NCBI GenBank assembly: GCA_965262485.1
Contig: OZ253540.1
Location: forward strand, 3,606,080 to 3,670,079
Origin: Dehalococcoidia bacterium
Lineage (GTDB): Bacteria > Chloroflexota > Dehalococcoidia > Lucifugimonadales > UBA3495
Direction of reading: 5' to 3'
DNA length: 64,000 nucleotides
Shown: in pieces, positions 27,921 to 46,650 of the stretch
Position numbering within the stretch: position 1 is the stretch's first letter
Layout: each line of letters starts with the position of its first letter
The notes under the pieces: model-generated
Seen by the model: only the letters and a program-made list of their open reading frames with translations
Database searches by the model: none
Told to the model about the DNA's origin: nothing
Position numbers and translations under genes: made by a program

Positions 27921-27925
27921 AGCAT

Positions 27926-28630
27926 CTATCCTTCGAGAACGGGCTCATGCAAGTCAAAAATCCGCCGCCGCACCTCAAACATAAACCCCGGCAGCACCGC
28001 ACCGCCGTTGATCGTCTCCGGGTTATCCAGTACCTCAGGCGAGGCGTCGGGGCGGTAGACGTGAACCTGTTGGTTGTACGGGTCAATCAGCCAACCCAGC
28101 AGCGCGCCGTTGGCGATGTACAGTTCCATCTTGCGCTGCAGCGGCGGCAAACGGTCGGTGCCGGACATTATTTCGGCGACAAAGGCCGGGCAGACGGTGA
28201 TTGCCTTGCCAGGGGTAATGCCGCCCATTTCCGTTATCTGTGCCGGCGACAACCACGCCGCATCCGGCTGGGTTCGAGTGCCATCGGGCAAACGGACAAT
28301 TCCATCGGAGCCGGAGACGCGTCCGCCGTGCCCGTCGTTCCAGGCGAATAGCCTTCCGATCATTTCCACTTCCGCAAAGTTGCCGTCCATATTCACCATG
28401 GGATTGATTACCAGTTCTCCTTTAGCGGTCAGCTCCAGATAGAAGCCACGGCCCTCGTTGGCTTTGGCGAGACCGACGATCCATTGGTCGATTTCGTCAT
28501 CGCTAAGTTTGCCGGCAACCGAGTCCAGGATGGACCGGATGTTGATAGTGAGAGGCAATGGCACATCGCTCCAGTCAGTAATGTCGTGGTCATCCGTGGC
28601 TGGAGCGTGGGGTTTGGGTTGAGCAACCAT
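27926..28630 (-). CDS. Uma2-family (DUF820) endonuclease, paralog 2
   Basis: Same architecture; 'VCPAFVAEIMSGTDRLPPLQRKMELYIANGALLGWLIDPYNQQVHVYRP'. Confidence 0.85.
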   Translation of the reverse strand: MVAQPKPHAPATDDHDITDWSDVPLPLTINIRSILDSVAGKLSDDEIDQWIVGLAKANEGRGFYLELTAKGELVINPMVNMDGNFAEVEMIGRLFAWNDGHGGRVSGSDGIVRLPDGTRTQPDAAWLSPAQITEMGGITPGKAITVCPAFVAEIMSGTDRLPPLQRKMELYIANGALLGWLIDPYNQQVHVYRPDASPEVLDNPETINGGAVLPGFMFEVRRRIFDLHEPVLEG

Positions 28631-28656
28631 CTCGTCTATCCCTCCTGGCCAGGTGG

Positions 28657-29334
28657 TTAATGCAAGTCAAAAATGCGGCTGCGGACATTGAACACGAACC
28701 CGGGCAGCACGGGCTCCCCGTCGATAGTCTCCGGGTCGTGCAGCACTTCGGGTTCGGCGCCGGGCCGGTAGATATGCACCCGGCGCTGGAAGGGGTCGAT
28801 TAGCCAACCGAGCAGTGCACCGGAGGTAATCCACTCCTCCATTTTGGCCTGCTGGTCTTCAAGCGCGTTAGACCGGGAACGAATTTCTACTATGAAGCGG
28901 GGGGCAAATGGCGCACCGTAGTCGCGCTGGCCAGCCGGGGGCAATTCGGCCAACTGCTCTGGTGCAATCCAGCCAGCATCGGGAGCGCGGCGTCCCGGCC
29001 AAGGCATTCGCACTAGCGCGTTTCCGGTTACTACCAACCCAGCAGGGCCCGTGTTCGCCCAAAACTGCAAATCAAAATAAACGCTACCCGCACGCTGCAT
29101 ACCGTCCATGCTCTCCGACGCCATTGCCAATAATCTCCCGGCCTCATCAATCTCAAACTGGTAGCCCAAATCCTTGTTGTCATGAGTGAACTCAATGAAC
29201 CAGGCATCCAGCGCGTCATCGTCAGGCAGCAGGGCCAGCACCGAACGGATGTCCAGCGCAAAGCTCTCAGGGAGCATATCGTCGTCAGCATCGGCGGTTA
29301 CCGCCAGCGGAGCGGTGATCGGCTGTGTACTCAT
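28657..29334 (-). CDS. Uma2-family (DUF820) endonuclease, paralog 3
   Basis: 'APRFIVEIRSRSNALEDQQAKMEEWITSGALLGWLIDPFQRRVHIYRP'. Its C-terminus is identical to paralog 1. Confidence 0.85.
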   Translation of the reverse strand: MSTQPITAPLAVTADADDDMLPESFALDIRSVLALLPDDDALDAWFIEFTHDNKDLGYQFEIDEAGRLLAMASESMDGMQRAGSVYFDLQFWANTGPAGLVVTGNALVRMPWPGRRAPDAGWIAPEQLAELPPAGQRDYGAPFAPRFIVEIRSRSNALEDQQAKMEEWITSGALLGWLIDPFQRRVHIYRPGAEPEVLHDPETIDGEPVLPGFVFNVRSRIFDLH

Positions 29335-29345
29335 TTTGCTCTACC

Positions 29346-30044
29346 CTACGCCGCATCGTCCAGGCAATCGCGCAGCGGGCGGTTGATGCACGAGAAAATC
29401 GGTGTGTCCTGCAGCGTGTAGGGCCGGGCTTTGGATTCCCGCAGCTCCATCACCAGATCCAGAAACGTCCCCGGCTCATCGGTCTCGAACCCCAGCACAA
29501 ACTCCGGATCGTCCAGGCCGAACGAGTAGGCAGTGGAGATTTTCACCTGCGGGTATTTGTGGCCGATGACGAAGTGGTCGTTCATCAACTCCTGGCGATC
29601 TTCCTTGGGCAGCTGATACCAGTCGTGGGTTTTCCAGAACGGATACATGAAGAGATAACGCCGGCCCACGATTCGCATGGACGCCGCATCGCCGGTTCCT
29701 TCCTGCCCCTCATGCTGGTGGTTGTCGATGTAGGGCGAGCGACGGGTCATCGCCAGATAGGAATGAGGCGTTTCCAGGTATCCGCCCAACCGGGTCCGGT
29801 TCAGTTGCGCCGCCAGCTCGTTGATTGGCTCCAGCTCCGGACAAACCCCCCACAGCATGAAATCGGTGTCGCCGCGAGTTCCCACCAGGCTGTAGGTATT
29901 CAGCGACACCCGGTCGGCGAACTCGGCGGTAACAGCGGCAAACTCATCCTTGCCGGCGTCCCGTTCCGCCGACGCCAGGCGACGCCACTCGGGCTGCACC
30001 CGGTAAAACGTGTACTTCACAAAATCGCGCCTGGGATCCGCCAT
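29346..30044 (-). CDS. chdC: chlorite-dismutase-family coproheme decarboxylase (HemQ/ChdC)
   Basis: 'FVKYTFYRVQPEWRRL...YSLVGTRGDTDFMLW...MYPFWKTHDWYQLPKEDRQELMNDH' is typical of actinobacterial-type HemQ. Confidence 0.8.
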   Translation of the reverse strand: MADPRRDFVKYTFYRVQPEWRRLASAERDAGKDEFAAVTAEFADRVSLNTYSLVGTRGDTDFMLWGVCPELEPINELAAQLNRTRLGGYLETPHSYLAMTRRSPYIDNHQHEGQEGTGDAASMRIVGRRYLFMYPFWKTHDWYQLPKEDRQELMNDHFVIGHKYPQVKISTAYSFGLDDPEFVLGFETDEPGTFLDLVMELRESKARPYTLQDTPIFSCINRPLRDCLDDAA

Positions 30045-30134
30045 CGCTTACCTCACATTGAATATTCGTTGCATCTGTTGGGACTCATGCTAGCCCGGTG
30101 TGGCGGAGTCGTCAATCGGTCAGCCGGCAATCCC

Positions 30135-30295
30135 CCTCATCCCGAGCCGGTCGAAGGCCCACCTGTCATTGCGAGGAGCGTAGCGACGTGGCAATCTCGT
30201 TGAGGTTGAACACACGCCGGCAAACCACCATTGCTACGGCGACGAGATTGCCACGCTGCGCTCGCAATGACAGATTAAAGTGGGTACGCATGAGG
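30135..30295. repeat. modular palindromic intergenic element, family A copy 1
   Basis: An outer stem gtcattgcga...tcgcaatgac encloses a core (30187-30255) bounded by ggcaatctcgt / acgagattgcc. Related copies sit at 44314-44497 and 46651-46831. Confidence 0.8.
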
Positions 30296-30417
30296 CGCTC
30301 CTCCAGGTTAACATTTGGCCCGTTGTCGGCTAACTATATGGGCGGTGAGGGAAGGTGGGGGAGGCGCTGGAGTTCCGCGCCATTTACATTCCACGATTGG
30401 CAGGGGACGAAGCATCC

Positions 30418-32652
30418 ATGATTCCCCGTTTTGCTCTCCGGGCGCTGACCTCGTTGGGGATCGTCCTGGTTGCGGTGATGCTGACGGATGGCCAGCCTTC
30501 GTATGCTGAAGGGGACGAGGGTTGCCATTTCCTTATGCACCTGCGCCAGTCCATTGAATTCACCGGCCCTGCCGGCGGCTATGATTTCGAGCTGTACCGG
30601 CCCACCAAGTACGGCGCCAACATATACCTGTCGAACGTGTATGGCGACCGACCCTGCAACTGGCACGCTTCCACCAATCAGAATTGGCTCGATTTGAGCA
30701 GAACCCGTGGCGAAATAGCGGGAGGAGACGACACGTTCATTACGGTGAGCATCAACGAGCGGGCGCAGGATTTGCCACGCGGTGTCCATAAGGCGGAAGT
30801 GGTCCTGAAATCACCCCAGGGTCCGCAACTAAAATACCCCTGGAAAGTAGAGGTGATTGTACACGCCGAAACACCGTGCTCCCTGCACATCTCCCAGGGC
30901 ATCTATCAGGCCCGGACACTGCGCGGTGAGGTGCCGCCAGGATTCAGCGTGGCCATCCTCACCAACCACGGCGATGCGCCCTGCGAGTGGACTGCGCAGA
31001 GCAGTCGTCCCTGGTTGAGCGTCTCGCCTACCAGCGGCGTCGTTACGCCGCAGCAACCTGGACAAATCAAGATCACAGCCAACGCCGGCGTCGCCAACCT
31101 GCCTCCGGACGACTACGACGCGGTGGTACACGTGCAATGGGTCTCAACCCGCGCGATGGACGTTGAAATCGAAGCGAGTTTAGAGGTAGAAGCGCCGCCT
31201 TGCGAGCTATATTTTGCGGAAGGACAAGCCCTCAGGATTTCCGGCAAAGCCGGTTCGATGGATTTCTCTCCAACGCACCAAAAATACGTCCTGGAAAACC
31301 GGGGCGGCACCCCGTGCTACTTTTGGCAAGCCAACGGCGTGCCGGACTGGCTGGCTATCGAGGATGAGAGCACGGTCTATGCCGCCAGTCAAACGGATGT
31401 GCAGGTGCTGGTGGATCAGCAGGCTGCGTCTCTACTTCGACCGGAATCGTACGAAACCACCGTCAGGTTCGGTTCCGGCAACGTTTCGGCCAGCAATGGC
31501 TTGGCGGTTGGAATCGACGTAAATCCGTTACCCTGCCACCTGGAAATCGTCGACCGGAGAGAACTGGTCTTCCGCATAGAACCGGAGGGACAATTAGAAG
31601 GCGAAAACCAGGAATCGATCGTCATACGCAACAATTCGACAAATGAAGATTGCTCCTGGCGAGCCGAATCGCGGAGAGACTGGCTGGTGGCAGAGCCGAG
31701 CAGCGGCACACTTGCCGGCGGCGAACAATCAACCGTTGTGGCAAGGATTGATCCCAACACTGAGGGATTTATCAGACTTCGTACCGGCAGCCACAGTGAG
31801 AACCTGGCATTCGCAGTGGTCAATGGCGCAGCGGACGCCCCGGTGCCGGTAACTCTGGATATTCCCTGCGAACCGAAACAACCGTGCGCTTATTTGCACA
31901 CCAGCCACACTAAAACCACGGTGAATCAGCCGGCGACAATCTCGCTGTCGATTTACAACCCTCTCGATGACAACATCATCGCCCATCTTGTTGCCCGGGT
32001 GCCATCGGGCTGGCAGGTGCAGAGCGATAATTTCGCCGAACGGTGCAGCGCGATATGCAACCTGACCTATCCGGTCGCGGCCGGCGGTAAGCAGGAGTTT
32101 ATCGAAATATTAGCCACCCCCAACAATGCTGGAAATCACGTTTTCGAAGCCAATGTGGAATGGGAGGTCGTCAACCCGGACAAACCGGACGACCCGGACG
32201 ACGCCATGAACACGCAGACTCTCGAGCCTCCGCCCGAACCCCAGAACCTCCGCGTAGATGTGGAAGTGATCGGCCTCTCGCCAAATTCGGACGCGCCGGC
32301 GGCTCCCACTGCAACCCTTCCGCCAGCCACCAGCACGCCTATGCCCTCACCGACTCCTGAACCGTTGGCGGTCGCTAACGCCGTCAACCCCGCTGGCGGC
32401 GCGCCACCGAAGGTCAGCGGGACGACGACCAATACGGTGAATGGTCCGGGCGGCAGTGCAGGAATCCCCGGTTGGGGACTATTGGTGGCCGCGGCGGCAA
32501 CGATAGCGCTCGCGGCAGTAGTGTTAATGTTAGTCGTGCGACGCGGCGGCCGGCGGAGGATATCCCCGGTCAACAGCAGTCCGATTGACTACGATGAGCT
32601 CGCCCGCGCTATCGAGCGCCAACGGCGCAACCGTCCGTCCAGCGCGACTTGA
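30418..32652 (+). CDS. secreted, C-terminally membrane-anchored protein with four BACON-like repeats
   Basis: Signal peptide from ATG 30418 ('MIPRFALRALTSLGIVLVAVML'). Four repeats of C-x-W-x-A...W-L...(S/T)G (e.g. 'APCEWTAQSSRPWLSVSPTSG'). The protein continues with a conserved module shared with the next gene, a Pro-rich linker, TM 'GLLVAAAATIALAAVVLMLVV' and a basic tail. Confidence 0.7.
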   Translation: MIPRFALRALTSLGIVLVAVMLTDGQPSYAEGDEGCHFLMHLRQSIEFTGPAGGYDFELYRPTKYGANIYLSNVYGDRPCNWHASTNQNWLDLSRTRGEIAGGDDTFITVSINERAQDLPRGVHKAEVVLKSPQGPQLKYPWKVEVIVHAETPCSLHISQGIYQARTLRGEVPPGFSVAILTNHGDAPCEWTAQSSRPWLSVSPTSGVVTPQQPGQIKITANAGVANLPPDDYDAVVHVQWVSTRAMDVEIEASLEVEAPPCELYFAEGQALRISGKAGSMDFSPTHQKYVLENRGGTPCYFWQANGVPDWLAIEDESTVYAASQTDVQVLVDQQAASLLRPESYETTVRFGSGNVSASNGLAVGIDVNPLPCHLEIVDRRELVFRIEPEGQLEGENQESIVIRNNSTNEDCSWRAESRRDWLVAEPSSGTLAGGEQSTVVARIDPNTEGFIRLRTGSHSENLAFAVVNGAADAPVPVTLDIPCEPKQPCAYLHTSHTKTTVNQPATISLSIYNPLDDNIIAHLVARVPSGWQVQSDNFAERCSAICNLTYPVAAGGKQEFIEILATPNNAGNHVFEANVEWEVVNPDKPDDPDDAMNTQTLEPPPEPQNLRVDVEVIGLSPNSDAPAAPTATLPPATSTPMPSPTPEPLAVANAVNPAGGAPPKVSGTTTNTVNGPGGSAGIPGWGLLVAAAATIALAAVVLMLVVRRGGRRRISPVNSSPIDYDELARAIERQRRNRPSSAT

Positions 32653-32703
32653 TGTCAAATATTCTGGCCGCCGGACATTCCGGCTATCCCCAGGAGAAAC
32701 TTC

Positions 32704-33771
32704 GTGAAAAACTTTAACCATTTAATCAGCCTAATCAGCCGCAATGTGTCGTTGTTGACCATGGTGGTCTTCGTCGTGGGAACCATAGTGCTTGCGTCGG
32801 CAATCACGCCCGGCGCCACGAACACCGTGTCCGCACAGGAAGCAACCGAGATGCCGCCGGCCACCAGCACGCTGGGGCCGCAGCCTACGGACACACCGCA
32901 ACCCACGGCGACGCCGGCGCCCACCAGCACGCCGGAGCCGCTGGCAACGGACACCCCGCAACCCACCTACACGCCGGCGCCCACCTACACGCCACTACCT
33001 ACTCAACCACTGCAACCCACTTACACGCCGCTGCCTACCGCCGTGCCCCAACAGCCGGCCCAGCCGTATTCGGGCACCACTCCGTTCATCAACTGCGGCC
33101 CCGGCGAGCCCTGTATTGACCTGCACAGCAGCCACACCAATATCTCGGTAGATGACAAGGCGCAGTTGAGCCTGTCCGTTACCAACGCTCTCAACAAGCC
33201 CAATATGACGGTGCGGCTCTTGTTGGAAATCCCCTCCGGATGGGAGGTGGACGGCGAGGGATTCGCCGAGCGGTGCAGCGGAGTCTGCAACGCGGTTTAT
33301 GACGTGTACACGGCACAGCAGGAGCTGATTCAGATCACTGCCTACCCCAACCAAACTGGTTCTTCCCGCATCGCCGGACGCATCGAGTGGCGTTATGCCG
33401 GCGAAGATAGCCTCTACCACATCACCCGCGATGTATCCATCAGGGTAACCGCGGGCGCCAACGGCAACCAACAGCGCCAGCAGCCCATTCCGGCGTTCCA
33501 GGCCCAGCCCTACGTTCCGCAAGGCGCACCCGCATCGGCGCCGGTCGCGGCCCAGCAGCAACCCGCGCAACAGCAAACCGGGCAACAGCAAGCGGCGCCA
33601 GCCCAGCAGCAAAATACCGATCCCGGGGCAAGCTGCAGCCTGGCCCCGGAGTCCAACAGTGTCGATCCCAGCCTGCTGCTGGTCGCCGGGTTAATCGTGC
33701 CTGGCATTGCCCTCCGGTTCCATTGGAGGCCTGGGCGCGCCCGCAATCGCGTTGACGACGCGGCGGAATAA
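32704..33771 (+). CDS. secreted, C-terminally anchored protein, paralogous module to the preceding gene
   Basis: Signal anchor 'LLTMVVFVVGTIVLASA', then a PT-rich linker. The module 'CIDLHSSHTNISV...EIPSGWEVDGEGFAERCSGVCNAVY' aligns with 'CAYLHTSHTKTTV...RVPSGWQVQSDNFAERCSAICNLTY'. A Gln-rich region and a C-terminal hydrophobic segment follow. Confidence 0.7.
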   Translation: MKNFNHLISLISRNVSLLTMVVFVVGTIVLASAITPGATNTVSAQEATEMPPATSTLGPQPTDTPQPTATPAPTSTPEPLATDTPQPTYTPAPTYTPLPTQPLQPTYTPLPTAVPQQPAQPYSGTTPFINCGPGEPCIDLHSSHTNISVDDKAQLSLSVTNALNKPNMTVRLLLEIPSGWEVDGEGFAERCSGVCNAVYDVYTAQQELIQITAYPNQTGSSRIAGRIEWRYAGEDSLYHITRDVSIRVTAGANGNQQRQQPIPAFQAQPYVPQGAPASAPVAAQQQPAQQQTGQQQAAPAQQQNTDPGASCSLAPESNSVDPSLLLVAGLIVPGIALRFHWRPGRARNRVDDAAE

Positions 33772-33906
33772 CTTCCGGCCAACTGTCACACCCCACCACG
33801 GGGGTGAGTTCAACACTCACCCCCGCATTTTCGACGGGAGAATGGGCTACAATCCTGTCGTAACACTACCGCCAATTCGGCATCCACCAATCCAGGAGGG
33901 ACAACC

Positions 33907-34854
33907 ATGGTAACTATCGGAGAAGGTCAGTACACCTACACAGTGCAGGAGGGTTGGGGACAGCTTCCCGCCGGCTTCGCATTCAAAGAGGTGGCCGCCG
34001 TCGGCTGCGACGAAAACGACAATGTCTATGCCTTCAATCGCGGCGACCACCCCATGATGGTTTTTGACAAGGACGGCAACTTCATCAAGTCCTGGGGAGA
34101 GGGCGTCTTTCCCCGCGCTCACGGCATCACAATGTCGCCCGATGGCAACATCTTCTGCACCGACGACGGCGACCACACCGTCCGCAAGTGCACTGCCGAC
34201 GGCGACGTGCTGCTCACTTTGGGAACCAGCGGACACCCGGCCGGCTTCATGTCCGGCGACCCTTTCAACCGCTGCACTCACGTGGCCATCGACCCCCGCA
34301 ATGGCGATTTCTTCGTCTCGGACGGTTACGGCAACGCCCGTATCCACAAATACAGCCCCGACGGACAGCTGCTATTCTCCTGGGGCGAATCGGGCAACGG
34401 CCCCGGCCAGTTCAACATCGCCCACAACATCGGCACGGACCGCAACGGACGGGTTTACCTGGCTGACCGGGAAAACCACCGCGTGCAGGTGTTTAACTCC
34501 GACGGCCACTTTCTGGGCCAGTGGACGGATATGGCCCGCCCCTGCGGTTTGTACATCGACCAGGATGCCGGACTCGTTTACCTCGGCGAGCTGGGCGCCG
34601 CCATCGGTTCCAACGACCAGGCCACCGGACTGGGCCCACGGGTCAGCGTGTACGATACCGAAGGCCGTTTGCAGGCCAGGGTCGGCGACGGGCCGGAAGG
34701 CGAAGCGGCCGGCCGGTTTATCGCCCCCCACGGCGTCTGCCTCGATTCCGCTGGCAATATCTACGTTGCCGAAGTGTCGTGGACCCATACCGGCCAGCAC
34801 CTCAACCCACCCCGCGAGGTTCGCTCCCTGCAGAAGCTGGTCAAAACCGGCTAA
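33907..34854 (+). CDS. NHL-repeat beta-propeller protein (peptidylglycine-amidating-lyase-like)
   Basis: Repeated 'GQFNIAHNIGTDRNGRVYLADRENHRVQVFNSDG'-type NHL units. RBS GGAGGG precedes the ATG. Confidence 0.7.
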   Translation: MVTIGEGQYTYTVQEGWGQLPAGFAFKEVAAVGCDENDNVYAFNRGDHPMMVFDKDGNFIKSWGEGVFPRAHGITMSPDGNIFCTDDGDHTVRKCTADGDVLLTLGTSGHPAGFMSGDPFNRCTHVAIDPRNGDFFVSDGYGNARIHKYSPDGQLLFSWGESGNGPGQFNIAHNIGTDRNGRVYLADRENHRVQVFNSDGHFLGQWTDMARPCGLYIDQDAGLVYLGELGAAIGSNDQATGLGPRVSVYDTEGRLQARVGDGPEGEAAGRFIAPHGVCLDSAGNIYVAEVSWTHTGQHLNPPREVRSLQKLVKTG

Positions 34855-34865
34855 TTTTTGACTTA

Positions 34866-34929
34866 CATCGATAGACAGGATGGACAGGATAGGGAGATCG
34901 ATAAATCCTGTTTATCCTGTTCATCGATG
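34866..34929. repeat. imperfect 64-nt palindrome built from ACAGGAT/ATCCTGT heptamers
   Basis: catcgatAGacaggatGGacaggata ... aaatcctgtTTatcctgtTCatcgatg. The same heptamers occur at 41371-41402. Confidence 0.55.
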
Positions 34930-34946
34930 TAATAAAGAGAGTTACC

Positions 34947-35651
34947 ATGGAAATCCGGATTGGAAGTCTCTCCCGCGACGCCCGGGAAGCCAGCGGCGCT
35001 GCGTTGATTATCGACGTATTTCGCGCCTTCACCACGGCGGCCATCGCCTTCGACCGGGGAGCCCAACGCATCACGCTGGTCGCAGAAGTCGAGGAGGCGT
35101 TGGCCATCCGGCAGCGCAACCCCGCCATCGCCGACATCCTGATGGGCGAGGTGGGCGGCGCCCGTCCCGACGGATTCGACCACGGCAACTCACCCTTCGA
35201 GGCCTCGTCCATCGACTTCGCCGGCAAGAGCATCGTGCAGTCAACCAGGGCCGGCACGGTGGGCACGGCCGCCGCCGGAGCCGCCGGGTGCAATCCCATT
35301 TACGTAACTTCGTTTGTGGTGGCGGGAGCCACGGCGCGGGCGCTGCTGGCGGAAGACCCCCTGCCAGGCCGGGTGACGATTCTGGCTATGGGTGACCAGG
35401 GCGCGGACCGTTCCGACGAGGACGAGCACTGCGCCCTGTACCTGCGTAACCGTCTGGAGGGCCGCAGCCCGGACCCAGCAGCCCTGCGAAAGTTGATCAT
35501 GGCCGGCGGCGCAACACAAAAATTCTTCGACGAAACCCAACCCCAGTTCCACCCCCGCGACGTATCCCTCGCCCTGGAAATAGACCGCTACAACTTCGCC
35601 ATGCGCATAACCCGGGAGGACGGCCTGCTGGTGGCCCGGCGGGTGGGGTGA
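34947..35651 (+). CDS. comB: 2-phosphosulfolactate phosphatase family protein (ComB-like)
   Basis: 'ALIIDVFRAFTTAAIAFDRGAQRITLV' and the overall length are typical of ComB. Confidence 0.65.
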   Translation: MEIRIGSLSRDAREASGAALIIDVFRAFTTAAIAFDRGAQRITLVAEVEEALAIRQRNPAIADILMGEVGGARPDGFDHGNSPFEASSIDFAGKSIVQSTRAGTVGTAAAGAAGCNPIYVTSFVVAGATARALLAEDPLPGRVTILAMGDQGADRSDEDEHCALYLRNRLEGRSPDPAALRKLIMAGGATQKFFDETQPQFHPRDVSLALEIDRYNFAMRITREDGLLVARRVG

Positions 35652-35652
35652 A
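35599..35652. repeat. direct repeat a (3' end of comB)
   Basis: 51/54 identical to 36449-36502 (ccatgcgcRtaacccgggaggacggSctgctggtRgcccggcgggtggggtgaa). Confidence 0.9.
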
Positions 35653-35829
35653 GGAGTTGGGTAACTGTTCAGACTGGCGTGGATCTGCGGACTATTCGGC
35701 CTATTGTGGAGGGGCAACCAAGCACGGCATTTCCACTGCTAACCGTTTCCGTCCCCTCAAACGTGAACGGTTACGGAGTTGGTTGTACGCTTGACGTCAA
35801 TAGTCAACGTTCGGTATGCTTGACCGGAT

Positions 35830-36114
35830 ATGATCATCGGGTATCGGGATCGCCGAACCGAGCAGTTCGCCAGTGGAGTATTCATCGCGGCGTTCCAGGG
35901 TTTTGAAGACCAGGCAACGAATCGGCTGGCGATCCTTAATGCCGCAGTATCGCTACATTCGCTGAGATCCCTGGGGGGAAACCGACTGGAATCTCTCAGT
36001 GGCTCGCGTGTCGGGCAGTATTCCGTCAGGATCAACCGGCAATGGCGCATCTGCTTTGCTTGGTCTGATGGCGCCATGGGGCCCTCTGATGTAGAGATTA
36101 CGGACTACCATTAA
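35830..36114 (+). CDS. higB: HigB-type toxin (RelE/ParE superfamily, plasmid-maintenance killer)
   Basis: '...FEDQATNRLAILNAAVSLHSLRSLGGNRLESLSGSRVGQYSVRINRQWRICFAWSDG...VEITDYH'. Confidence 0.85.
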   Translation: MIIGYRDRRTEQFASGVFIAAFQGFEDQATNRLAILNAAVSLHSLRSLGGNRLESLSGSRVGQYSVRINRQWRICFAWSDGAMGPSDVEITDYH

Positions 36115-36125
36115 CTTCTTGGAGG

Positions 36126-36425
36126 ATGTGCAGTATGTTCAGGCGGATCGTTCATCCTGGGGAGATTTTGAAGGACGAGCTGGAAGAATTGGGGGTATCC
36201 CCCACAGCGCTGGCTCGGCAGATCGATGTGCCCCCGAATCGAATCAGCCAGATAATCGCCGGCAAGCGTTCTGTAACCGGGGACACTGCGCTGAGATTGG
36301 GGCATTGGTTCAGCATGGAACCGCAATTCTGGCTGAACCTCCAGACCCAATACGATCTGGCGGTTGCCGACCAGCTAGTGGGCGAAACCGTGCGTGGCCT
36401 GCCAACCGTCGCCTCCAGCCGCTAA
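36126..36425 (+). CDS. higA: HigA-type HTH antitoxin
   Basis: 'HPGEILKDELEELGVSPTALARQIDVPPNRISQIIAGKRSVTGDTALRLGHWF'. Confidence 0.85.
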   Translation: MCSMFRRIVHPGEILKDELEELGVSPTALARQIDVPPNRISQIIAGKRSVTGDTALRLGHWFSMEPQFWLNLQTQYDLAVADQLVGETVRGLPTVASSR

Positions 36426-36448
36426 CTGCAAGAGTTCGCCACGACGCT

Positions 36449-36502
36449 GCCATGCGCGTAACCCGGGAGGACGGGCTGCTGGTAGCCCGGCGGGTGGGGT
36501 GA
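36449..36502. repeat. direct repeat b (orphan copy of the comB 3' end)
   Basis: Encodes 'AMRVTREDGLLVARRVG*', matching the comB C-terminus 'AMRITREDGLLVARRVG*'. Confidence 0.9.
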
Positions 36503-36520
36503 ATAAACAGGGGAAGAAAT

Positions 36521-37438
36521 ATGACCAATGATTTTGCTGATCTAGAGAGCATTGCACAATGGACGGTATCATATGAAGCCGAAAATGTAATTGAAAATAG
36601 TATTGATGCGGGCGAACTAGCCTCATCATTACTATCAATACGACAATTGTGCCTCCGTTCGAATGAAATCATGAACGGAGGCACTGCAACTGCGTCCTTA
36701 CGCGTTATCGCAACTAACGCAGGATCCTTTGATGTTCATGTAGCACTGGCCATTACGCTTATCGCTGGGATGCACGCCCTTTCAGGGGACTACGTCTCAG
36801 CGGCTGTGAATTTGAAATACCTCCTAACAGGCAATCCCGGAGCGATGGGAATTATAGGGGCATTCAGGCATCTTCGGGGGAGATCTTATATCACTACTGA
36901 AATCAACCAGGATTCGGTTACACTTGAAGCTAATGAACTAAGATTAAATATCCCAGTGGAGGTGTTCAGCCTATTCCAAGATAGGAGTGTGAAAGAAGCG
37001 TTGAATGACATGATAGAACCTTTGAAACAACATAGCGTAACAAAAATCACATTTCGCGATGGAGATGAGGAATTAGTATCTTTAGAATCAAATGATTTCG
37101 ATGATCCTGAATACGATGATCCCTCAGATGAGACAGAAAATGTGATTGATATACCTATACAGAGGCTACGTGTTGCCTCTCCCAATTTAGAAAACAGGAC
37201 CGCTAAATGGCGATTGAACGACGGCAATACCACGCGGTGGTATTCGATTCATGATGAAGACTTCATGCAAAAAGTCACGAACGGTGACGAGAAATTTGGC
37301 GCTGGTGATGTACTCACTTGCCATGTTAACATTGTCCAGACATTACATAATGACAGTGGATTCGACAGCGATTACCGAATAATAAAGGTTCTGGATCATA
37401 GTTCACCCGGCAGGCAATTATCTTTCAATGATGGATAA
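36521..37438 (+). CDS. hypothetical protein, strongly AT-rich orphan
   Basis: A 305-aa uninterrupted ORF. Spot counts of 60-nt lines give about 35-37% GC versus about 65% in the flanks. Acidic stretch 'DFDDPEYDDPSDETE'. No family recognised. Confidence 0.6.
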   Translation: MTNDFADLESIAQWTVSYEAENVIENSIDAGELASSLLSIRQLCLRSNEIMNGGTATASLRVIATNAGSFDVHVALAITLIAGMHALSGDYVSAAVNLKYLLTGNPGAMGIIGAFRHLRGRSYITTEINQDSVTLEANELRLNIPVEVFSLFQDRSVKEALNDMIEPLKQHSVTKITFRDGDEELVSLESNDFDDPEYDDPSDETENVIDIPIQRLRVASPNLENRTAKWRLNDGNTTRWYSIHDEDFMQKVTNGDEKFGAGDVLTCHVNIVQTLHNDSGFDSDYRIIKVLDHSSPGRQLSFNDG

Positions 37439-40400
37439 ATTAATACCCAACGCCCTCATAATCGCATTGTTGCTGCCATGCACCGCCGGCTCTCTGCACC
37501 ATTGGTTGCGCAAAGTATTAACAGCAGCAATGGCCTGCTGATTTTCACTCAGGCCCAGCATTTCCAGCACAACATGGTCAATCCGATGACGGTTAGCGTC
37601 ACGGAAAGCGTAGGATGCCGGCTGTAGTTCCGACGTTGAGAGTTCGCCGTAATGACGGCGCGCCGTTGCTCTGGCCAGTTCGCCAGCCTCGCTGTCGGCG
37701 GAGAAATCAGGGATGGGGAATCCCGATAGTGCTCTTATCTGCATCGTAGCCCGGCCCGGTTGCGTCGTTTGGGCGTAGCAGGTTCTCAACATCAACCCAA
37801 ATGTCGAGTTAAGCCAAATGGCTAGTGCGGCTTTCACGTCGTCATTGCCGGAATGCAACGTCGTCCACGCCCGGCCGCCCATTGCAGATTGCGGGGTTCG
37901 TGCCGCTGCCAAAGCCTGCGATGTCAAACGCAAAGTACGGGAGATAAACAGATCACTGCGCTGCGCCAGCATCTGCCGGAGTTGCTCCTCATCGTCTATT
38001 GCCGGCTGTCCGTCATGAGTTGAGGAAACCAGGATTCGTTTCTGCGATTCGGAGTCTGCCGCCCAGAGTGAAGGGTATGTTGGCAGTATGTCCGGCGTGA
38101 TTCGGTCGAAAGTGAACGCACCGATGGTTTCCGTCGCTCCCCGTATATGACCAATCAGATGGTGCGTTGGGCCTATGGTAACCGCTTGCTCGAGAGCAGT
38201 CATCGGAAGGCTGAATTCCCAACCCTGTCGGTTTTCCGGGGAGTACAACCGGCCGACCATCAGCTCGGTAGCAACTGTGGCAAGGTGGTGGTTCTGCATT
38301 CCCACACCGAACCACGGGAAACCCGCTGAGGGCGGCGTGATGGCCGTCCAACTGCCGATGTGCTTGCCCGCTTCGTGAATAATGCCGCTGTTGCTGCCCG
38401 ATTGCCGAATGTCGTTTATCCAATTGGCGTACCAATAGGATTCTGTGACCGATTGGGGAATGTCGCTGATATTCACGCAAACAATCCGCGTGTCTTCGTC
38501 CGTGTCATCTTTGGTTCGCCGGGTAGCCACCAACAGCATCTCGTTCATATAGGTGTCGGCAGACATCATTGCAGTCTGGTGGGCGGTAAAAGCGATGGCG
38601 GTTATCTCTCGGTATTCACTCTCCACGGTACTGCGAAACCCCTCCCAGGATTCGGAGTGAGCGGCTGTGAGAGGCAGTACGGTAGCGAAAACGCCGCCGG
38701 CCTTGAGCTTTTTGCCAGCCAGGGCGGAAAAATCCGCGCCCAGGCCGGCTTGTCCATCAGTCATTTGGTTGCCGGCGTTTCGCAGGTTGTTGCGAATACT
38801 CGTCAGTCGTTTCATGCTGCGTTTGCGCTGGGGTTCGGTGATTCCCGTTACATCGAACATCCTGCGGTCGCCCCGGGCCCGGGAATAAGGCGGATTCTGT
38901 ATAACCACGTCCTGACTGTGATGGGGGACCGGGATAGAAGTCGGCTGCTCCAGGTTTGCAGTAGCGGTGCGGGCCAATTGGCCGGTTACATCGGTAATCT
39001 GGTCCGATTCCAGGAGTTCCAAGGAGCCGGTATTCCCGCCCAGAACAGCAACGGCGGCGATGTGGGCAGTGTGATACTCGGTTGCAATCTCGGCGGTGGA
39101 CAGGCCGGCAGCAGTCATATGGGACGCCAAAGAGTTGATGTCCAGGCCAGTGATTGACTGCTCCATCATTGTGCGATGCAGGTTGTCTGCGCTGCCGCCG
39201 GCTGATTCGTGCTTCCGCCGGATACCGTGATAGGAAGCTCGCAGCAGAGTTCCGGTTCCGCAGGCCAAATCGGCCACGCGGAGGTTGCCTACGGCAGTTT
39301 CGGATGCCCAATCATTCAGGGATATGCGCGCGACGGCCAGCTGCGACAGCAGTTCCGCCGTTTCGGGCAATGTGTAGTGCGCCGCTGTTTCCTCTCGGTC
39401 GTCCAACAAGAGGGGGAAGAGTTCGCCGGCGAAGTCCACCCGATTGCCAAGCCGCAGGGCCGTGACACGTTCTGCCGTGGTGGCCAGTTCGGTCAATACG
39501 CCGGAGCCAACCGCGTCCGGTATGCGGTCATCCAGCGCATCGCGGGCCGTATTGAAAATGGAACCGTAGTTGACTGCCAGTATCTTGTCCCACTCGGTTC
39601 GCAAATCGCCCAGCGTAATACTGCCGCGGCCGGCAGTCCTCAATTCCGCGATTGAGTGTAGTCCATTCTGGCGCAGCGTGGCTGAACCGGCTGCCAACAA
39701 GTTATGCAGTCGTAAAGAGGTAAGCCAGATGCAGCAGGCCATGCGTAACCCCTGCATTTCCTGACGCTGGCCCAATATGCCGGCAATGGCGCCAGCAACT
39801 CCCGGCGGCAGACTGCGATAAAGATAATCGGCTAGGCTGTGTATCCCAGCAGCTACTTGGCTGGCAGTTCGGGAAACTAAGGTCGGCGGCGCTGCCGCGT
39901 ATTCACAAAGTGCCGCCAGATCATCTACAGTGCCGACAACATAATTCGGATGCGCCGGCCAATAGGAAACATCTTCCTCAGTCAACGCGATTTCGGTCTC
40001 GTTACCTTCAATGTTTGCGGACAAGATAGCGTACCGCAGTTCCAAACCTTCCGGTTGCGCTAACCGCTCTCGCAGTTGGTAATTTGACCAGCCGCGAATC
40101 TCGAGCGGTGCGCCCACGGCAATGGCCGAACGTACCGGAAACGGGGTTCCTGTTACCAATCGGCCCAACCTGCTCCGGGCATCGCCGAAAGCGGGTTCGC
40201 CAAACTCTACTTCAATCACAACGGGATAAATGTCCGGCGGTGTGACCAGAATGTCAGGGCGTTCCCTCCTGGCATCATCAAACACCTGCTGGCGTTCGGC
40301 GATAATAAAACGTTCGTCCTCGCGCCACGCCCTTCGCCTGGCACGCAGTGCATTCGCCAACGCCTCATTAAAAGTTTGTTCGTGCATCAGGCCGGCGGGG

Positions 40401-40444
40401 CCAGATGGCATATTGGGCAAGTTCGGTTGCGTACTCATAAGCAC
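37418..40444 (-). CDS. 1008-aa N6-adenine methyltransferase with possible N-terminal PD-(D/E)xK-like region (type IIG-like?)
   Basis: 'HYTLPETAELL', motif I 'RVADLACGTGTLL', motif IV 'VVIQNPPYSR'. The N-terminal 'ERPDILVTPPDIYPVVIEVEF' is nuclease-like but lacks an obvious Lys. The C-terminal region is long and unassigned. Confidence 0.7.
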   Translation of the reverse strand: MLMSTQPNLPNMPSGPAGLMHEQTFNEALANALRARRRAWREDERFIIAERQQVFDDARRERPDILVTPPDIYPVVIEVEFGEPAFGDARSRLGRLVTGTPFPVRSAIAVGAPLEIRGWSNYQLRERLAQPEGLELRYAILSANIEGNETEIALTEEDVSYWPAHPNYVVGTVDDLAALCEYAAAPPTLVSRTASQVAAGIHSLADYLYRSLPPGVAGAIAGILGQRQEMQGLRMACCIWLTSLRLHNLLAAGSATLRQNGLHSIAELRTAGRGSITLGDLRTEWDKILAVNYGSIFNTARDALDDRIPDAVGSGVLTELATTAERVTALRLGNRVDFAGELFPLLLDDREETAAHYTLPETAELLSQLAVARISLNDWASETAVGNLRVADLACGTGTLLRASYHGIRRKHESAGGSADNLHRTMMEQSITGLDINSLASHMTAAGLSTAEIATEYHTAHIAAVAVLGGNTGSLELLESDQITDVTGQLARTATANLEQPTSIPVPHHSQDVVIQNPPYSRARGDRRMFDVTGITEPQRKRSMKRLTSIRNNLRNAGNQMTDGQAGLGADFSALAGKKLKAGGVFATVLPLTAAHSESWEGFRSTVESEYREITAIAFTAHQTAMMSADTYMNEMLLVATRRTKDDTDEDTRIVCVNISDIPQSVTESYWYANWINDIRQSGSNSGIIHEAGKHIGSWTAITPPSAGFPWFGVGMQNHHLATVATELMVGRLYSPENRQGWEFSLPMTALEQAVTIGPTHHLIGHIRGATETIGAFTFDRITPDILPTYPSLWAADSESQKRILVSSTHDGQPAIDDEEQLRQMLAQRSDLFISRTLRLTSQALAAARTPQSAMGGRAWTTLHSGNDDVKAALAIWLNSTFGLMLRTCYAQTTQPGRATMQIRALSGFPIPDFSADSEAGELARATARRHYGELSTSELQPASYAFRDANRHRIDHVVLEMLGLSENQQAIAAVNTLRNQWCREPAVHGSNNAIMRALGINLSIIER

Positions 40445-40491
40445 CTTTATACAGCATTGGCCCGGGCTACCTAAGCCTTGAGTCCTACCCC

Positions 40492-41367
40492 CTAAAACCC
40501 CACCATCCAGGCCGCGAACCGCCGCAGCAGTCCCTCCGATCCCTGCTCGATGGTGAACCGGCTTGCCGCTAGGGCCGTATCCAGATCAAGCCGGCCGTAG
40601 GCCAGCAGCAGGTAGGTGTTGGCGTCGCAGGACACCAGCAGGTCTATGGACGAGGCATCGCCGTGGACATTGTTGCCCACTTCCACACCGTCGGGACTGA
40701 CGATCACATCCAGCGCAGCGGCATCCGACAAGTGGAACAGGTAGCGCACCGCTTGGGTGGGCGGGTCGTTGCCCGGGTTGTAGGCGGTGCGGAGCCAGTG
40801 GGCCGACATCCCCAGCAACACCGGCTGCGCGTCGGCGTGGAGGCCGGCATTGCTGTCGAAGGCGCTGCGGATATCCCAGTCGTGCACCGCCAGCTCCTGG
40901 ATGCGCTGGCTCACGTACTCCCGCGCCGTCATAGTCCCGCGCCGGGGGTGCCAGCAATCGCAACGCCAGTCGTCGCCGCTGAAGTTTCCCAACAGACCGT
41001 GCAACGCGCGATAAAGTTGGTCGTACGTCGGCAGCAGATCGTCCCCCATGGACTGAGCGTAAGCGATGTCCGCATCGGCGTTGGCCGCCGACATCGCCAT
41101 GTTGTCCGTTGGCGCGCTGAATCCGGCGGGAGGCCCGGAGTCGCCGGTGCGCCCTCGGGTCATGCTGGCGATTTGCCGCTCGGCCCGGTTGGTCAAATGT
41201 CCGGCCACGTCGCGCACCGTCCAGGCGTCGCAGGCCGACTGCCGGCCCAGATCCGCGTCGGTCAGGCCCGACAGAAACTCGTGCAGCTCGCGGGCCAGGG
41301 TGCCGATAACGCGCACCTCATCCCGGATAATCGCCTCATCATAAGCCGCCATCGCACCCATCTCCAA
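40492..41367 (-). CDS. DinB/MDMPI-like (mycothiol-dependent maleylpyruvate isomerase N-terminal domain) protein
   Basis: 'LTDADLGRQSACDAWTVRDVAGHL'. Confidence 0.65.
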   Translation of the reverse strand: MEMGAMAAYDEAIIRDEVRVIGTLARELHEFLSGLTDADLGRQSACDAWTVRDVAGHLTNRAERQIASMTRGRTGDSGPPAGFSAPTDNMAMSAANADADIAYAQSMGDDLLPTYDQLYRALHGLLGNFSGDDWRCDCWHPRRGTMTAREYVSQRIQELAVHDWDIRSAFDSNAGLHADAQPVLLGMSAHWLRTAYNPGNDPPTQAVRYLFHLSDAAALDVIVSPDGVEVGNNVHGDASSIDLLVSCDANTYLLLAYGRLDLDTALAASRFTIEQGSEGLLRRFAAWMVGF

Positions 41368-41414
41368 TCAATCCTGTATATCCCGAATATCCTGTCCATC
41401 CCGGTTCAAATTCT

Positions 41415-42272
41415 TCACAGCCCGCCAAACCACCGACCCAGGTTCCGCAGCGCCACGTGGGCAATCGTGTCGGCAGTCTGGGACACCCTGACACGGCCGG
41501 CGCGCTTGGCGGTATTCCAGTCCACCCGGTTGTACAGGCACAACAGATACGTACCGGCATCGCAGCGGACGGTCAAATCCGGCTGACGGTCGGGAGCGCA
41601 GGGCTCAATGGAAAAGGCGTCGCCCGTAACCACCACGTCGTGGCTCAGGGACGCGCCGCCGTCGCCTCCCACTTCGAAACGATACGCCACCGGTGTGGTC
41701 AGCGGGGCCGTGGGGCGGAAGCAGAGTTGGTACCACATCTCCGACCCTGGCAGCAGCGCCGCTGCTCCGTCGGCGTCCAGTTCACCTTCGCCGGCGCCGC
41801 CCGAGCGCATGTCCCAATCGTGAATCACCAGTTCCTGAATACGCAAATCCAGATAGCTGCTGGCCGAAATCGTACCGCGCCGACGGTGCCAGCAACCGAT
41901 TGACCAGTCAGTCCAGTCCCGTAGAGTGTCGTCCAGTTCCTGGTACCACTGCTGGAAATTATCCAGCAACGCATCGCCCCACTCCCGGCGCATCTCCACG
42001 TTGTTAACGGCGTTGGCCTGCTGCACCTGGTCGGCAGTGGGCATAACGCTTTCGCCCTCGGGTGGGCCGCCCTCTCCGGCCAGCCCCCGCAGCAACGCCT
42101 CTCGCTGACGGACGGCTCCACCGGCCAGATGTGCGGCCACCGTGCCAACGTCCCACTCCGAGCACGCCGAAGGGCCGTTCAGCGCTGCGGCCGGCCCTTC
42201 GGATAGTCGCCGGTGAATGTCCCCCGACAAGCGTTTAATCAGTTCAACCCTGGCGGCATCGTCCAGCATCAT
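41415..42272 (-). CDS. DinB/MDMPI-like protein, tandem paralog
   Basis: 'PSACSEWDVGTVAAHLAGG' and 'IQELVIHDWDMR', parallel to the neighbour's 'IQELAVHDWDIR'. Confidence 0.65.
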   Translation of the reverse strand: MMLDDAARVELIKRLSGDIHRRLSEGPAAALNGPSACSEWDVGTVAAHLAGGAVRQREALLRGLAGEGGPPEGESVMPTADQVQQANAVNNVEMRREWGDALLDNFQQWYQELDDTLRDWTDWSIGCWHRRRGTISASSYLDLRIQELVIHDWDMRSGGAGEGELDADGAAALLPGSEMWYQLCFRPTAPLTTPVAYRFEVGGDGGASLSHDVVVTGDAFSIEPCAPDRQPDLTVRCDAGTYLLCLYNRVDWNTAKRAGRVRVSQTADTIAHVALRNLGRWFGGL

Positions 42273-42374
42273 TGCCTCCCCAAATTTGTCTGAGTCCCAA
42301 TCGCAAGTAGTTTATCACGACGCCGCCGGCAATCCGGGCCGGTGTATAATGCCGCCAACCGGGAGGTGAGAGTT

Positions 42375-44126
42375 ATGCCGGAAATGATGGGACCTCATAC
42401 TGTTATTCGTACCGAGTTCGGCCTGCCGGCGCTCATGCGCGACGGCGTGACGCTCTACGCCGACGTGTACCGTCCGGACACTTCGGACCCGGTGCCCGTG
42501 CTTTTGCAACGCACTCCCTACGACAAGGCACAGTCCCGGACGGGCAGCCTCGACGTGATGCGCGCGGCGTCCCACGGCTATGCGGTAGTGATCCAGGACA
42601 CCCGCGGGCGCTACACCTCCGAGGGCGAGTTCTACCCCTTCCTGGATGAACCGGACGACGGCTACGATACCGTGCAATGGTGCGCCGACCAACCCTGGAG
42701 CACCGGCAAGACGGGTATGTTCGGGCGTTCCTACGTGGGAGCCACCCAGTGGCTTTGCGCTATCACCAACCCGCCGGCCCTTACGACCATCTCCCCCGGT
42801 ATCACCGCCTCCGACTACTACGAGGGCTGGACCTATCAGGGGGGCGCGTTGGCCTGGGGGTTTGCCCTTTCGTGGACGATGCGACAATTGACCATGGCCA
42901 ACCTCGGCGCCATCAGCAGCCGCCACGACGTCCCCGAAGGCGCCCGCGCCGGGCTCCTGGAAGCTTTCAACCGGCTGGACTGCACCATGCGTCAACAACC
43001 CATCGTGGAGTTGCCGCACCTCAAAGCGCCGCTGGCGGACTATTTTTACGACTGGATTCGGCACTCGTCCAGCGACGAATACTGGCAGCGCTGGCGCATC
43101 GAGGACCACTACCCGCATATCACCACGCCGGCGCTGCACGTGGGCGGATGGCACGATATTTTCCTGTTGGGCACCCTCCGCAATTTCGTTGGTATGCGGA
43201 AACAGGCCGAGGACGCAACGGCGCGGGGCGGTCAACGTCTCATCGTTGGCCCCTGGCACCACGGCCCGTTTGCCGAAATGTCGGGCGACTACTTCTTTGG
43301 CCTGGGCGCTTCCGGGCCGGCCATCGACACCGACGGCGTGCAGCTGCGGTGGTTCGATTACTGGCTAAAGGGCGAGCAGAATGGCGCCGACGCCGATCCT
43401 CCGGTTCGCATCTTCGTCATGGGCGACAACCGTTGGCGCGACGAACAGGAGTGGCCGTTGGCGCGAACCCGGTTCACCGACTACTACCTGCACAGCGGCG
43501 GTCGGGCCAATACCGCGGCCGGCGATGGCGTCCTGTCTGCCGATGCCGCCGGTGAAGAATCGCCCGATGTGTTCCTGTATGATCCCCGCGATCCGGTTCC
43601 AACCCGGGGCGGCCCGCTGTGCTGTGGCCCGTCTTTCGTGCCCGGCGGCGCCTACGACCAGCAGGAGTTGGAGGGCCGCAGCGACGTGCTCTGCTACACC
43701 ACGCCGACCCTCACGGCCGATGTCGAGGTTACCGGGCCGGTAACCCTTACGCTGCATGCTGCGACCTCTGCCGCCGATACCGATTTCACTGCCAAGCTGG
43801 TGGATGTGGATCCGTGCGGTTCGGCGCGCAACCTTACCGACGGCATTATCCGCGCGCGATACCGCAGCGGCACCGATGAGTCCCGCCCCGTTACGCCCGG
43901 CGCCGTCCACGAGTACAACATTGACCTGGTGGCCACCAGCAACGTTTTCAAAGCCGGCCATCGCATCCGTCTGGAGATCAGCAGCAGTAACTTCCCGCGG
44001 TTCGACCGCAACTTCAACACCGGGGGCGATCCGTGGGCGTCCACCGACAGCGTGCCGGCGGTGCAAACCATTCATCACAACGGGCAATATCCGTCGCGCT
44101 TGCGCCTGCCCGTCATTCCCGCCTGA
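42375..44126 (+). CDS. CocE/NonD-family (S15) hydrolase
   Basis: 'VTLYADVYRPD...PVLLQRTPYDK' and 'GRSYVGATQW'. ATG 42375 follows GGGAGGTGAG; the track start is 42342. Confidence 0.85.
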   Translation: MPEMMGPHTVIRTEFGLPALMRDGVTLYADVYRPDTSDPVPVLLQRTPYDKAQSRTGSLDVMRAASHGYAVVIQDTRGRYTSEGEFYPFLDEPDDGYDTVQWCADQPWSTGKTGMFGRSYVGATQWLCAITNPPALTTISPGITASDYYEGWTYQGGALAWGFALSWTMRQLTMANLGAISSRHDVPEGARAGLLEAFNRLDCTMRQQPIVELPHLKAPLADYFYDWIRHSSSDEYWQRWRIEDHYPHITTPALHVGGWHDIFLLGTLRNFVGMRKQAEDATARGGQRLIVGPWHHGPFAEMSGDYFFGLGASGPAIDTDGVQLRWFDYWLKGEQNGADADPPVRIFVMGDNRWRDEQEWPLARTRFTDYYLHSGGRANTAAGDGVLSADAAGEESPDVFLYDPRDPVPTRGGPLCCGPSFVPGGAYDQQELEGRSDVLCYTTPTLTADVEVTGPVTLTLHAATSAADTDFTAKLVDVDPCGSARNLTDGIIRARYRSGTDESRPVTPGAVHEYNIDLVATSNVFKAGHRIRLEISSSNFPRFDRNFNTGGDPWASTDSVPAVQTIHHNGQYPSRLRLPVIPA

Positions 44127-44497: not shown

Positions 44498-44549
44498 GTA
44501 GCCCATCGGTTGCAGGGATAACGCCCGGTTGCTACAATCTTAAGCACGC

Positions 44550-46491: not shown

Positions 46492-46493
46492 CC

Positions 46494-46640: not shown

Positions 46641-46650
46641 GGCCTTAACC

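Follow-up and report, generated by a model that had tools for sequence, protein, structure and literature searches.

Genes and repeats between comB and DinB1

The 64-kb stretch of Dehalococcoidia DNA analyzed here (contig OZ253540.1, in the following called the window) carries a small islet of accessory genes directly behind comB. In this islet a higBA toxin-antitoxin (TA) module is followed by an orphan copy of the last 54 nt of comB, by a gene of the PDC-S42/LAPAL family (S42 gene) and by a gene for a 1008-aa N6-methyltransferase-like protein. Next to the latter lie two genes of the DinB/MDMPI family on the minus strand. The comB sequence places the window in SAR202/Dehalococcoidia, and orthologues with 84-96% aa identity and the same NHL-comB synteny are found on more than 25 contigs of this group. 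The features of the locus are collected in Table 1.

Table 1. Features of the comB-DinB1 locus; positions refer to the window.
Feature	Position	Strand	Description
comB (2-phosphosulfolactate phosphatase family)	34947..35651	+	PF04029, E=2.7e-34; intact core gene, left flank of the hotspot
Repeat copy A	35598..35651	+	Functional comB 3' end, 17 codons + TGA
higBA module	35652..36448	+	797 bp: 178-nt leader, higB, higA, 23-nt tail
Hairpin	35740..35773	+	13-nt arms, in the higBA leader
Sigma-70-like promoter	35791..35820	+	TTGACG-18-TATGCT, 10 nt upstream of higB; consensus match only
higB toxin, 94 aa	35830..36114	+	PF05015, E=2.8e-10, 40.9 bits (cut-off 27)
higA antitoxin, 99 aa	36126..36425	+	Helix-turn-helix (HTH); TIGR02607 antidote_HigA, E=7.3e-28, 96.2 bits (cut-off 47.7); PF01381
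Junction zone	36429..36448	+	Patchy 11/20 similarity to comB sequence upstream of copy A
Repeat copy B	36449..36502	+	Orphan comB 3' end, 17 codons + TGA; non-coding relic
Low-GC segment (0.43)	36503..37442	+	Carries the PDC-S42/LAPAL gene; boundaries by comparison with L098
PDC-S42/LAPAL-family gene	36521..37438	+	PADLOC PDC-S42, E=4.9e-58; NCBIfam LAPAL_fam, 191.7 bits (cut-off 60)
1008-aa N6-methyltransferase-like gene	37418..40444	-	NPPY motif; weak MmeI/type II/IIG/PglX/MAD2 matches
DinB1 (DinB/MDMPI family)	40492..41367	-	PF11716, PF12867; core gene, right flank of the hotspot

The 54-bp repeat is confirmed as real. A search of the window with the 54-mer, allowing up to three mismatches, returned exactly two sites, copy A without mismatch and copy B with three (51/54 identical), and no match in 100 dinucleotide-preserving shuffles. 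An earlier note on this DNA had described the same pair; its identity value stands, its first interval has to be moved by one nucleotide since the comB stop codon TGA occupies 35649-35651, and the spacer, which indeed holds only higB and higA, measures 797 instead of 796 bp. Both repeats reach as far as the stop codon (+1 nt), and the homology between strains with different cargo ends there as well.

Copy B has a GC content of 0.74, similar to core DNA, and belongs to no supported open reading frame (ORF); its translation is the clade-consensus AMRVTREDGLLVARRVG followed by the stop. One of the differences between the copies affects a first codon position, where copy A reads ATA (Ile) and copy B reads GTA (Val); the remaining two are synonymous third positions. 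The exchange of Val for Ile is unique to copy A: AMRI occurs there only, and AMRV is present in all 14 cluster members and all relatives. The two copies are no closer to each other than copy A is to the comB allele of the related locus L086, or copy B to that of L093 (51/54 each).

Upstream of the repeats the similarity is weak, with 7/13 and 11/20 matches. Repeat finding merges this part into a 74-nt pair of 85% identity, and the earlier note had mentioned weaker similarity over approximately 13 bp. When 20-mers of the region are paired at random, about 0.2% of the pairs agree at 12/20 positions or more, and we regard the 11/20 as suggestive only. The junction zone is a candidate site of an illegitimate or microhomology join.

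The module between the copies has a GC content of 0.56 compared to 0.67 in comB. It shows the toxin-first order of a reverse TA system, with the start of higA 11 nt past the higB stop. An upstream promoter-like site with a palindrome, a toxin of the RelE fold in first place and an HTH HigA in second place, separated by this short gap, are features shared with the HigBA type II family, and nothing unusual was found about the pair, which shows 70-78% identity to members of a very large family. We found 578 higB homologues (mostly 93-108 aa; best identity 78%). The sigma-70-like site overlaps the TTGACGTCAA palindrome and is probably the autoregulated promoter of the module itself. The leader hairpin is possibly a remnant of the comB terminator or an operator.

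The earlier note had considered higBA as a minimal mobile TA cassette. This does not agree with its nearest homologues (at most 78% aa identity), which lie in unrelated contexts beside PEP-mutase or ffh genes. The three closest are not flanked by direct repeats, and the nucleotide homology to the nearest relatives is confined to the coding region. Neither terminal inverted repeats on the 797-bp spacer nor pdif/Xer-type repeats at the cassette ends were found. The islet has no transposase and the duplication comprises 54 nt, which does not correspond to a transposon, an insertion sequence (IS) or a miniature inverted-repeat transposable element. There is also no imperfect palindrome resembling an attC hairpin at the higA-distal end and no integrase among the tested ORFs within ~10 kb, as an integron cassette would demand. 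To judge from these sequence features, higBA is probably ordinary cargo with its own putative promoter and not a self-mobile element. As a separate observation, an unrelated Tara contig (L082, 6001-9712) carries a 73%-identical higBA pair, and the gene that comes next on this strand encodes a 961-aa homologue of the methyltransferase-like protein (36% identity over the full length); this pairing may be a coincidence or a functional link.

Behind copy B, the S42 gene begins with an ATG at 36521, 18 nt past the repeat. It has no Pfam match, but PDC-S42 is a PADLOC family of candidate defence genes; distant homologues occur in the temperate phages A2 and vB_LmoS_188, and a scan of IMG/VR with the S42 sequence returned nothing. 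The 1008-aa gene is convergent with it, its stop codon lying at 37418 so that both overlap by 21 nt. The earlier note was therefore right that the AT-rich gene begins after copy B, and wrong in letting the 1008-aa gene begin there, as this gene is on the minus strand and ends at this position. Orthologues of the 1008-aa gene are located directly beside comB in L097 and L098 (97% aa identity), and a further one is found in L013 (63%). Compared to L098, the low-GC segment sits between the comB stop codon and the penultimate codon of the methyltransferase-like gene. Due to this insertion the encoded protein is five residues longer in the window, where it ends in ...ALGINLSIIER*, than in L098, where it ends in ...ALGIR*. 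The GC content at third codon positions (GC3) is 0.62 and 0.70 for higB and higA, 0.39 for S42 and 0.63 for the methyltransferase-like gene, compared to 0.75-0.84 for core genes; these distinct values imply that the modules were acquired separately.

A variable interval with changing cargo

To place the islet in its context we compared the comB loci of related genomes. The 90% protein cluster of comB has 71 members and contains alleles ~96% aa identical to that of the window, and four fetched relatives from this cluster show 93.6-95.6% nucleotide identity in comB. The site is empty in L088/L089, L093-L096, L179 and the more distant L001, where only 55-58 nt separate comB from DinB1. The comB allele of L088/L089 alone is carried by 19 contigs, and the empty-site contigs of close relatives amount to more than 20 in all. 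Because close relatives have this empty state, the whole interval 35652-40491 of the window must be regarded as insert, made up of higBA, the comB fragment, the PDC-S42/LAPAL gene and the 1008-aa gene.

Other strains carry other genes at the same position. L085 has a 173-aa gene, a pentapeptide protein and a 958-aa methyltransferase-like gene between comB and DinB1; in L090-L092 the 173-aa gene and the pentapeptide protein are combined with a 110/156-aa pair. A split ATPase set resembling LmuB/GajA occurs together with a 110/155-aa pair in L086/L087. The orthologous 1008-aa genes of L097 and L098 lie 17 nt from comB, accompanied by an IS in the former and by a 110/155-aa pair in the latter. 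In more distant relatives comB is directly followed by N6_N4 or N6 methylases, PIN toxins, an AMP-ligase or genes without assigned family. The module higBA is absent from the comB site of every relative and is strain-specific here. The comB-DinB1 interval, which lies between two convergent core genes, is thus a variable defence-gene hotspot of the SAR202/Dehalococcoidia clade. The comparison of comB loci proposed in the earlier note thus had a positive outcome, with both empty sites and alternative cargos, and its suggestion of a second cargo at the same site is borne out insofar as the AT-rich and the methyltransferase-like gene are further cargo of the hotspot. Given its position in L097 and L098, we propose that the 1008-aa gene may be the older cargo.

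Chromosomal hotspots without an integrase and core defence hotspots between conserved genes are reportedly described by Oliveira et al. 2017, Hochhauser et al. 2023 and Johnson et al. 2023. The comB-DinB1 interval resembles such chromosomal hotspots in its two conserved flanks, in the coexistence of empty, single-module and multi-module states among close strains, and in its content of methyltransferases, TA modules, ATPase systems and candidate defence genes without mobility genes. It differs from them by its very small size (0-4.8 kb), by its occurrence in an uncultured SAR202/Dehalococcoidia clade, and by junction scars which record the order of additions.

Orphan gene ends and the question of an attachment site

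Direct repeats of the 3' end of a conserved gene which end at the stop codon are a classic signature of site-specific integration. Elements known to duplicate a gene end in this way include ICESt1 and the related cis-mobilizable elements (CIMEs) at fda, the staphylococcal cassette chromosome (SCC) at rlmH and SGI1 at trmE. The earlier note accordingly compared the comB repeats with attL and attR of an element integrating at the 3' end of comB. In such a case higBA would be a non-autonomous element similar to a CIME, an integrative and mobilizable element or a pseudo-SCC, with the comB 3' end as attB and a tyrosine or serine recombinase encoded elsewhere. Its attP would have mimicked the 54 nt so that integration regenerated comB, and the S42 and methyltransferase-like genes would represent an older element in tandem. 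Several features agree with this explanation: direct repeats are present at both ends, one of them within the 3' end of the target, empty sites contain a single copy of the sequence, and the cargo consists of accessory or defence-like genes. For the rlmH site of staphylococci, defence cassettes lacking an integrase are documented in tandem arrays (PMC11470126).

Two defining features of a site-specific integrative element, a cognate integrase and a recurrent att sequence, were however not found. With respect to the former, no recombinase or transposase is encoded by the islet genes or by ten further ORFs tested within ~10 kb, as the earlier note had already remarked for the integrase, and the loci of 13 annotated relatives contain no integrase. 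We further examined 147 ORFs of 170-520 aa, taken from 47 genomes and located at most 4.5 kb downstream of comB. They matched 57 Pfam families, 25 of which were listed and comprise neither phage integrases nor resolvases; these 25 include every family with at least three members, and the 32 families outside this list have at most two members each. A repeat of the tRNA-Trp 3' end that would mark a neighbouring integrase island was not found either.

With respect to the latter, no second copy of the comB 3' end was found downstream of comB in 178 fetched loci, and none of the other cargo-bearing relatives has one; the only extra comB fragment lies 5.4 kb upstream of comB in L026. Six other cargo configurations occupy the same site in close relatives without a comB repeat. 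The block formed by the S42 and methyltransferase-like genes does not end in a third copy on its right side. The earlier note had suggested looking for the 54-bp sequence beside other cassettes, and the 42-nt core of the repeat gave 0 exact matches in the metagenome collection. A second metagenome scan with the comB protein, which returned mostly short and distant contigs, revealed neither higBA beside comB nor extra comB fragments. While CIMEs and pseudo-SCC elements share with the islet the gene-end repeats, the lack of a recombinase in the cassette and the accretion in tandem, we sought the recurrent att sequence and the cognate recombinase family in vain, and the right-hand block has no terminal repeat.

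A further argument arises from the same architecture at other genes, in which a whole core gene is followed by a new cassette, an orphan 3' fragment of the core gene and the old cargo. In L086, a 120-nt copy of the DinB1 3' end (94% identity, stop codon included) lies across the 110/155-aa cassette from the intact DinB1. L098 contains the same fragment with the same breakpoint, there as a 123-nt DinB1 3' fragment. The methyltransferase-like gene of L098 together with this fragment is colinear with the corresponding gene and the intact DinB1 of the window (95.9% over 3171 nt), and beyond the fragment follow the 110+155-aa cassette and then a whole DinB1. From this colinearity the fragment is the gene end that was there originally and has kept its place beside the old cargo, while the cassette and a full DinB1 were added beyond it. 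Moreover, five of the seven differences between the fragment and the DinB1 gene of L086 are polymorphisms found in other strains, which indicates that the two are alleles and not a fresh duplication. L090 shows the donor-like state, in which the cassette stands beside an intact DinB1 without a fragment, and the window represents the recipient-like state.

The shared breakpoint is also of importance for the question whether the comB repeat is an assembly artefact, that is, a chimera in which two strain variants were connected at their common comB 3' end. The genome is evidently derived from a metagenome, and co-occurring strains of the clade differ at exactly the comB-DinB1 site, which would favor such an error. 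Yet the independent assemblies L086 (ERZ25074053) and L098 (ERZ25067264) agree in the DinB1 breakpoint. The comB copies differ at three positions, the left junction of copy B (higA stop + 23 nt) is unique and must exist in real reads, and a protein identical to that of the S42 gene is on record for a 4.08-Mb NCBI/ENA contig. We consider an artefact extremely improbable.

Additional cases were observed at other genes. In L035 a 50-nt duplication (96%) of the 3' end of a luciferase-like monooxygenase gene brackets a 701-bp insert with one gene; this site is empty in L031 and L020, and the insert lies between two core genes without old cargo. The comB fragment of L026 (4385-4566, ~180 nt) is decayed and frameshifted and stems from a foreign allele type, as its ending (…ARRVG*) is typical of the clade of the window and not of the comB of L026 itself. 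It is located directly upstream of the BACON-protein block in the HemQ-NHL hotspot, which suggests that part of a formerly adjacent gene is carried along when cargo blocks move. L053 (labelled Entotheonella) might contain another scar of the same type: a 121-nt direct repeat (93%; 1139-1259 and 3703-3822), consisting of the 3' end of a 388-aa gene and 47 nt, brackets ~2.5 kb with a 184-aa unknown protein and a YdcK-like beta-solenoid protein, and neither of these two ORFs is an integrase.

As DinB1 and the monooxygenase gene form the same kind of bracket, the comB repeat is not a dedicated att site. The brackets use different sequences and different lengths (50, 54 and 120 nt), and no motif is shared by the cassette ends of the DinB1 and monooxygenase cases. 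In summary, we judge it unlikely that the comB copies are the attL and attR of a non-autonomous element, and the repeat probably does not serve a self-mobile one as attachment site either.

A proposed history of the islet

With moderate confidence we interpret copy B as a scar of 3'-end displacement by homology-anchored recombination, in an islet that was built stepwise within the comB-DinB1 hotspot. The ancestral state would be the empty site, followed by an older state with the methyltransferase-like gene beside comB, as it is seen in L098. The low-GC PDC-S42 gene would then have been inserted between the stop codons of comB and the methyltransferase-like gene. Last, or at least separately, DNA carrying comB-higBA from a related strain would have recombined into the locus. 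One end of the incoming DNA may have been anchored by homology in or upstream of comB, and the other end, just past the higA stop, may have been joined illegitimately inside the resident comB approximately 54-74 nt before its stop codon. The product would be a complete comB whose 3' end is new (copy A), followed by higBA and by the displaced old end (copy B) in front of the S42 and methyltransferase-like genes. Copy B, the old comB end that has stayed with its former neighbours, would be a non-coding scar. The RecA-dependent insertion of a circularized comB'-higBA fragment in the manner of Campbell would lead to the same product and is counted within this explanation. We infer both the direction of the event, with copy B as the resident end, and its one-ended homologous/illegitimate mechanism.

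A similar process, homology-facilitated illegitimate recombination, was proposed for the displacement of rhs C-termini and for the effector-immunity arrays of the type VI secretion system (T6SS) of V. cholerae (PMC5361080). The orphan-module arrays of rhs, T6SS and contact-dependent inhibition loci likewise consist of a conserved gene with a new 3' end, a new module, the orphaned old 3' fragment and the old module. They also lack an integrase, use the conserved upstream sequence as anchor and are later reshuffled by ordinary homologous recombination (PMC5361080). In contrast to these arrays, the anchor at the comB locus is the gene of a housekeeping enzyme whose 3' end is not a variable toxin tip, and the displaced piece is functionless and comprises only 54-120 nt. 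Since the cargo consists of defence and TA genes instead of cognate immunity genes, there is no obvious selection to keep a displaced module.

Several points weigh against this history. Neither a relative with adjacent comB and S42 genes, the predicted recipient state, nor one with comB-higBA and no comB fragment, the predicted donor state, was found among the loci. The order of events at comB is read by analogy with DinB1. With only 3/54 differences and no strain closer than ~95%, an old duplication in situ and an allelic import are inseparable. The classical experiments on homology-facilitated illegitimate recombination (de Vries & Wackernagel 2002; Prudhomme 2002) reportedly yielded mainly deletions in the recipient and not duplications. 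An integrase from outside the 64-kb window may have acted in trans, and the recurrence of 50-120-nt duplications which end at stop codons could mean that a more specific insertion mechanism exists.

The duplication in situ would follow from a local event, namely a double-strand break close to the end of comB or an error of replication there, the repair of which left a long duplication of the target and captured the foreign higBA. Staggered breaks with fill-in, template switching or unequal sister exchange could provide the route, and the resident comB would be the origin of both copies, which diverged later. This is supported by the ending CGG-CGG-GTG-GGG-TGA, which is common to both copies and found in some comB alleles only, and by the symmetrical divergence of one derived change per copy and a third, ambiguous site. 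The patchy 11/20 similarity at the junction resembles microhomology-mediated joining, and the L035 case looks like a simple insertion with duplication. On the other hand, a divergence of 5.6% would have to have accumulated after the event, yet higBA is present in no other sampled strain. The copies of the parallel DinB1 case are demonstrably different alleles; at comB, only one of the three differences is a polymorphism shared with other strains. We also know of no bacterial repair route that routinely produces target duplications of 50-120 nt. We consider a local event improbable.

The fetched sequence of ~2 Mb contains four or five independent gene-end duplications of this kind, if the comB, DinB1 and luciferase-like monooxygenase genes, the possible L053 case and the comB fragment of L026 are counted. 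One could think of a dedicated process in SAR202/Dehalococcoidia, either integrase-independent or trans-acting, by which small cassettes are inserted immediately behind stop codons under duplication of the last 50-120 nt. To us this appears a distant prospect compared with the displacement described above.

Two repeats were rejected as further cases. The 18136/19566 repeat of L053 looks by eye like the ends of an IS transposase. The 70-nt direct repeat of L011 downstream of comB belongs to a family of palindromic intergenic elements ("CEERSDVAIS" or "PRCARND") resembling repetitive extragenic palindromes (REP), of which the "PRCARND" type is common in these genomes. In the window such REP-like elements are found at 30182-30254, 44318-44458 and 46665-46809, and as the pair 46496-46638 and 50610-50777. 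They sit at the edges of variable segments, namely the junction of HemQ and the BACON block and both sides of a tRNA-Trp/nucleotidyltransferase segment. Rfam reported for 29000-47500 only the tRNA-Trp and a spurious miRNA match on a palindromic repeat. A different inverted repeat with 28-nt arms (86% complementary; 34863-34932) is situated between the NHL gene and comB, shortly before the comB start, and may be a regulatory or terminator structure; palindromes occur at the equivalent place in L006 and L026.

A second hotspot (30045-33900) is located between a chlorite-dismutase-like gene (29346-30044) and the NHL gene (33907-34854). It contains genes for a BACON-domain protein of 765 aa and a Pro/Thr-rich protein of 355 aa in the window, L001, L026, L090 and L097/L098, and a CAP-domain protein in L088, L093 and L179; in L006, L007 and L010 the site is occupied by a gene whose product is related to the 1008-aa methyltransferase-like protein (31% identity), and many relatives are empty. 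Further upstream, at 25671-29334, an AIPR (abortive-infection) gene precedes three tandem paralogues of the Uma2 endonuclease family with a period of ~700 nt (27231-29334), whose copy number varies from 2 to 5 among relatives.

The probable scar in the comB islet represents a structure of known kind from a clade that has been little studied. It cautions annotators against calling an integrative element on no other grounds than a directly repeated gene 3' end. The recurrence of the 50-120-nt gene-end duplications is the point which could raise the value of the finding. If a dedicated mechanism were true, it would represent a new form of cassette mobility that leaves the target gene intact, of wider interest for the integrase-free spread of defence genes. 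The comB locus shows how a small defence and TA islet grows by the addition of single modules in a marine clade that is uncultured and has no mobility genes at this place, and short orphan gene ends can be read as timestamps of the order in which its parts were acquired.

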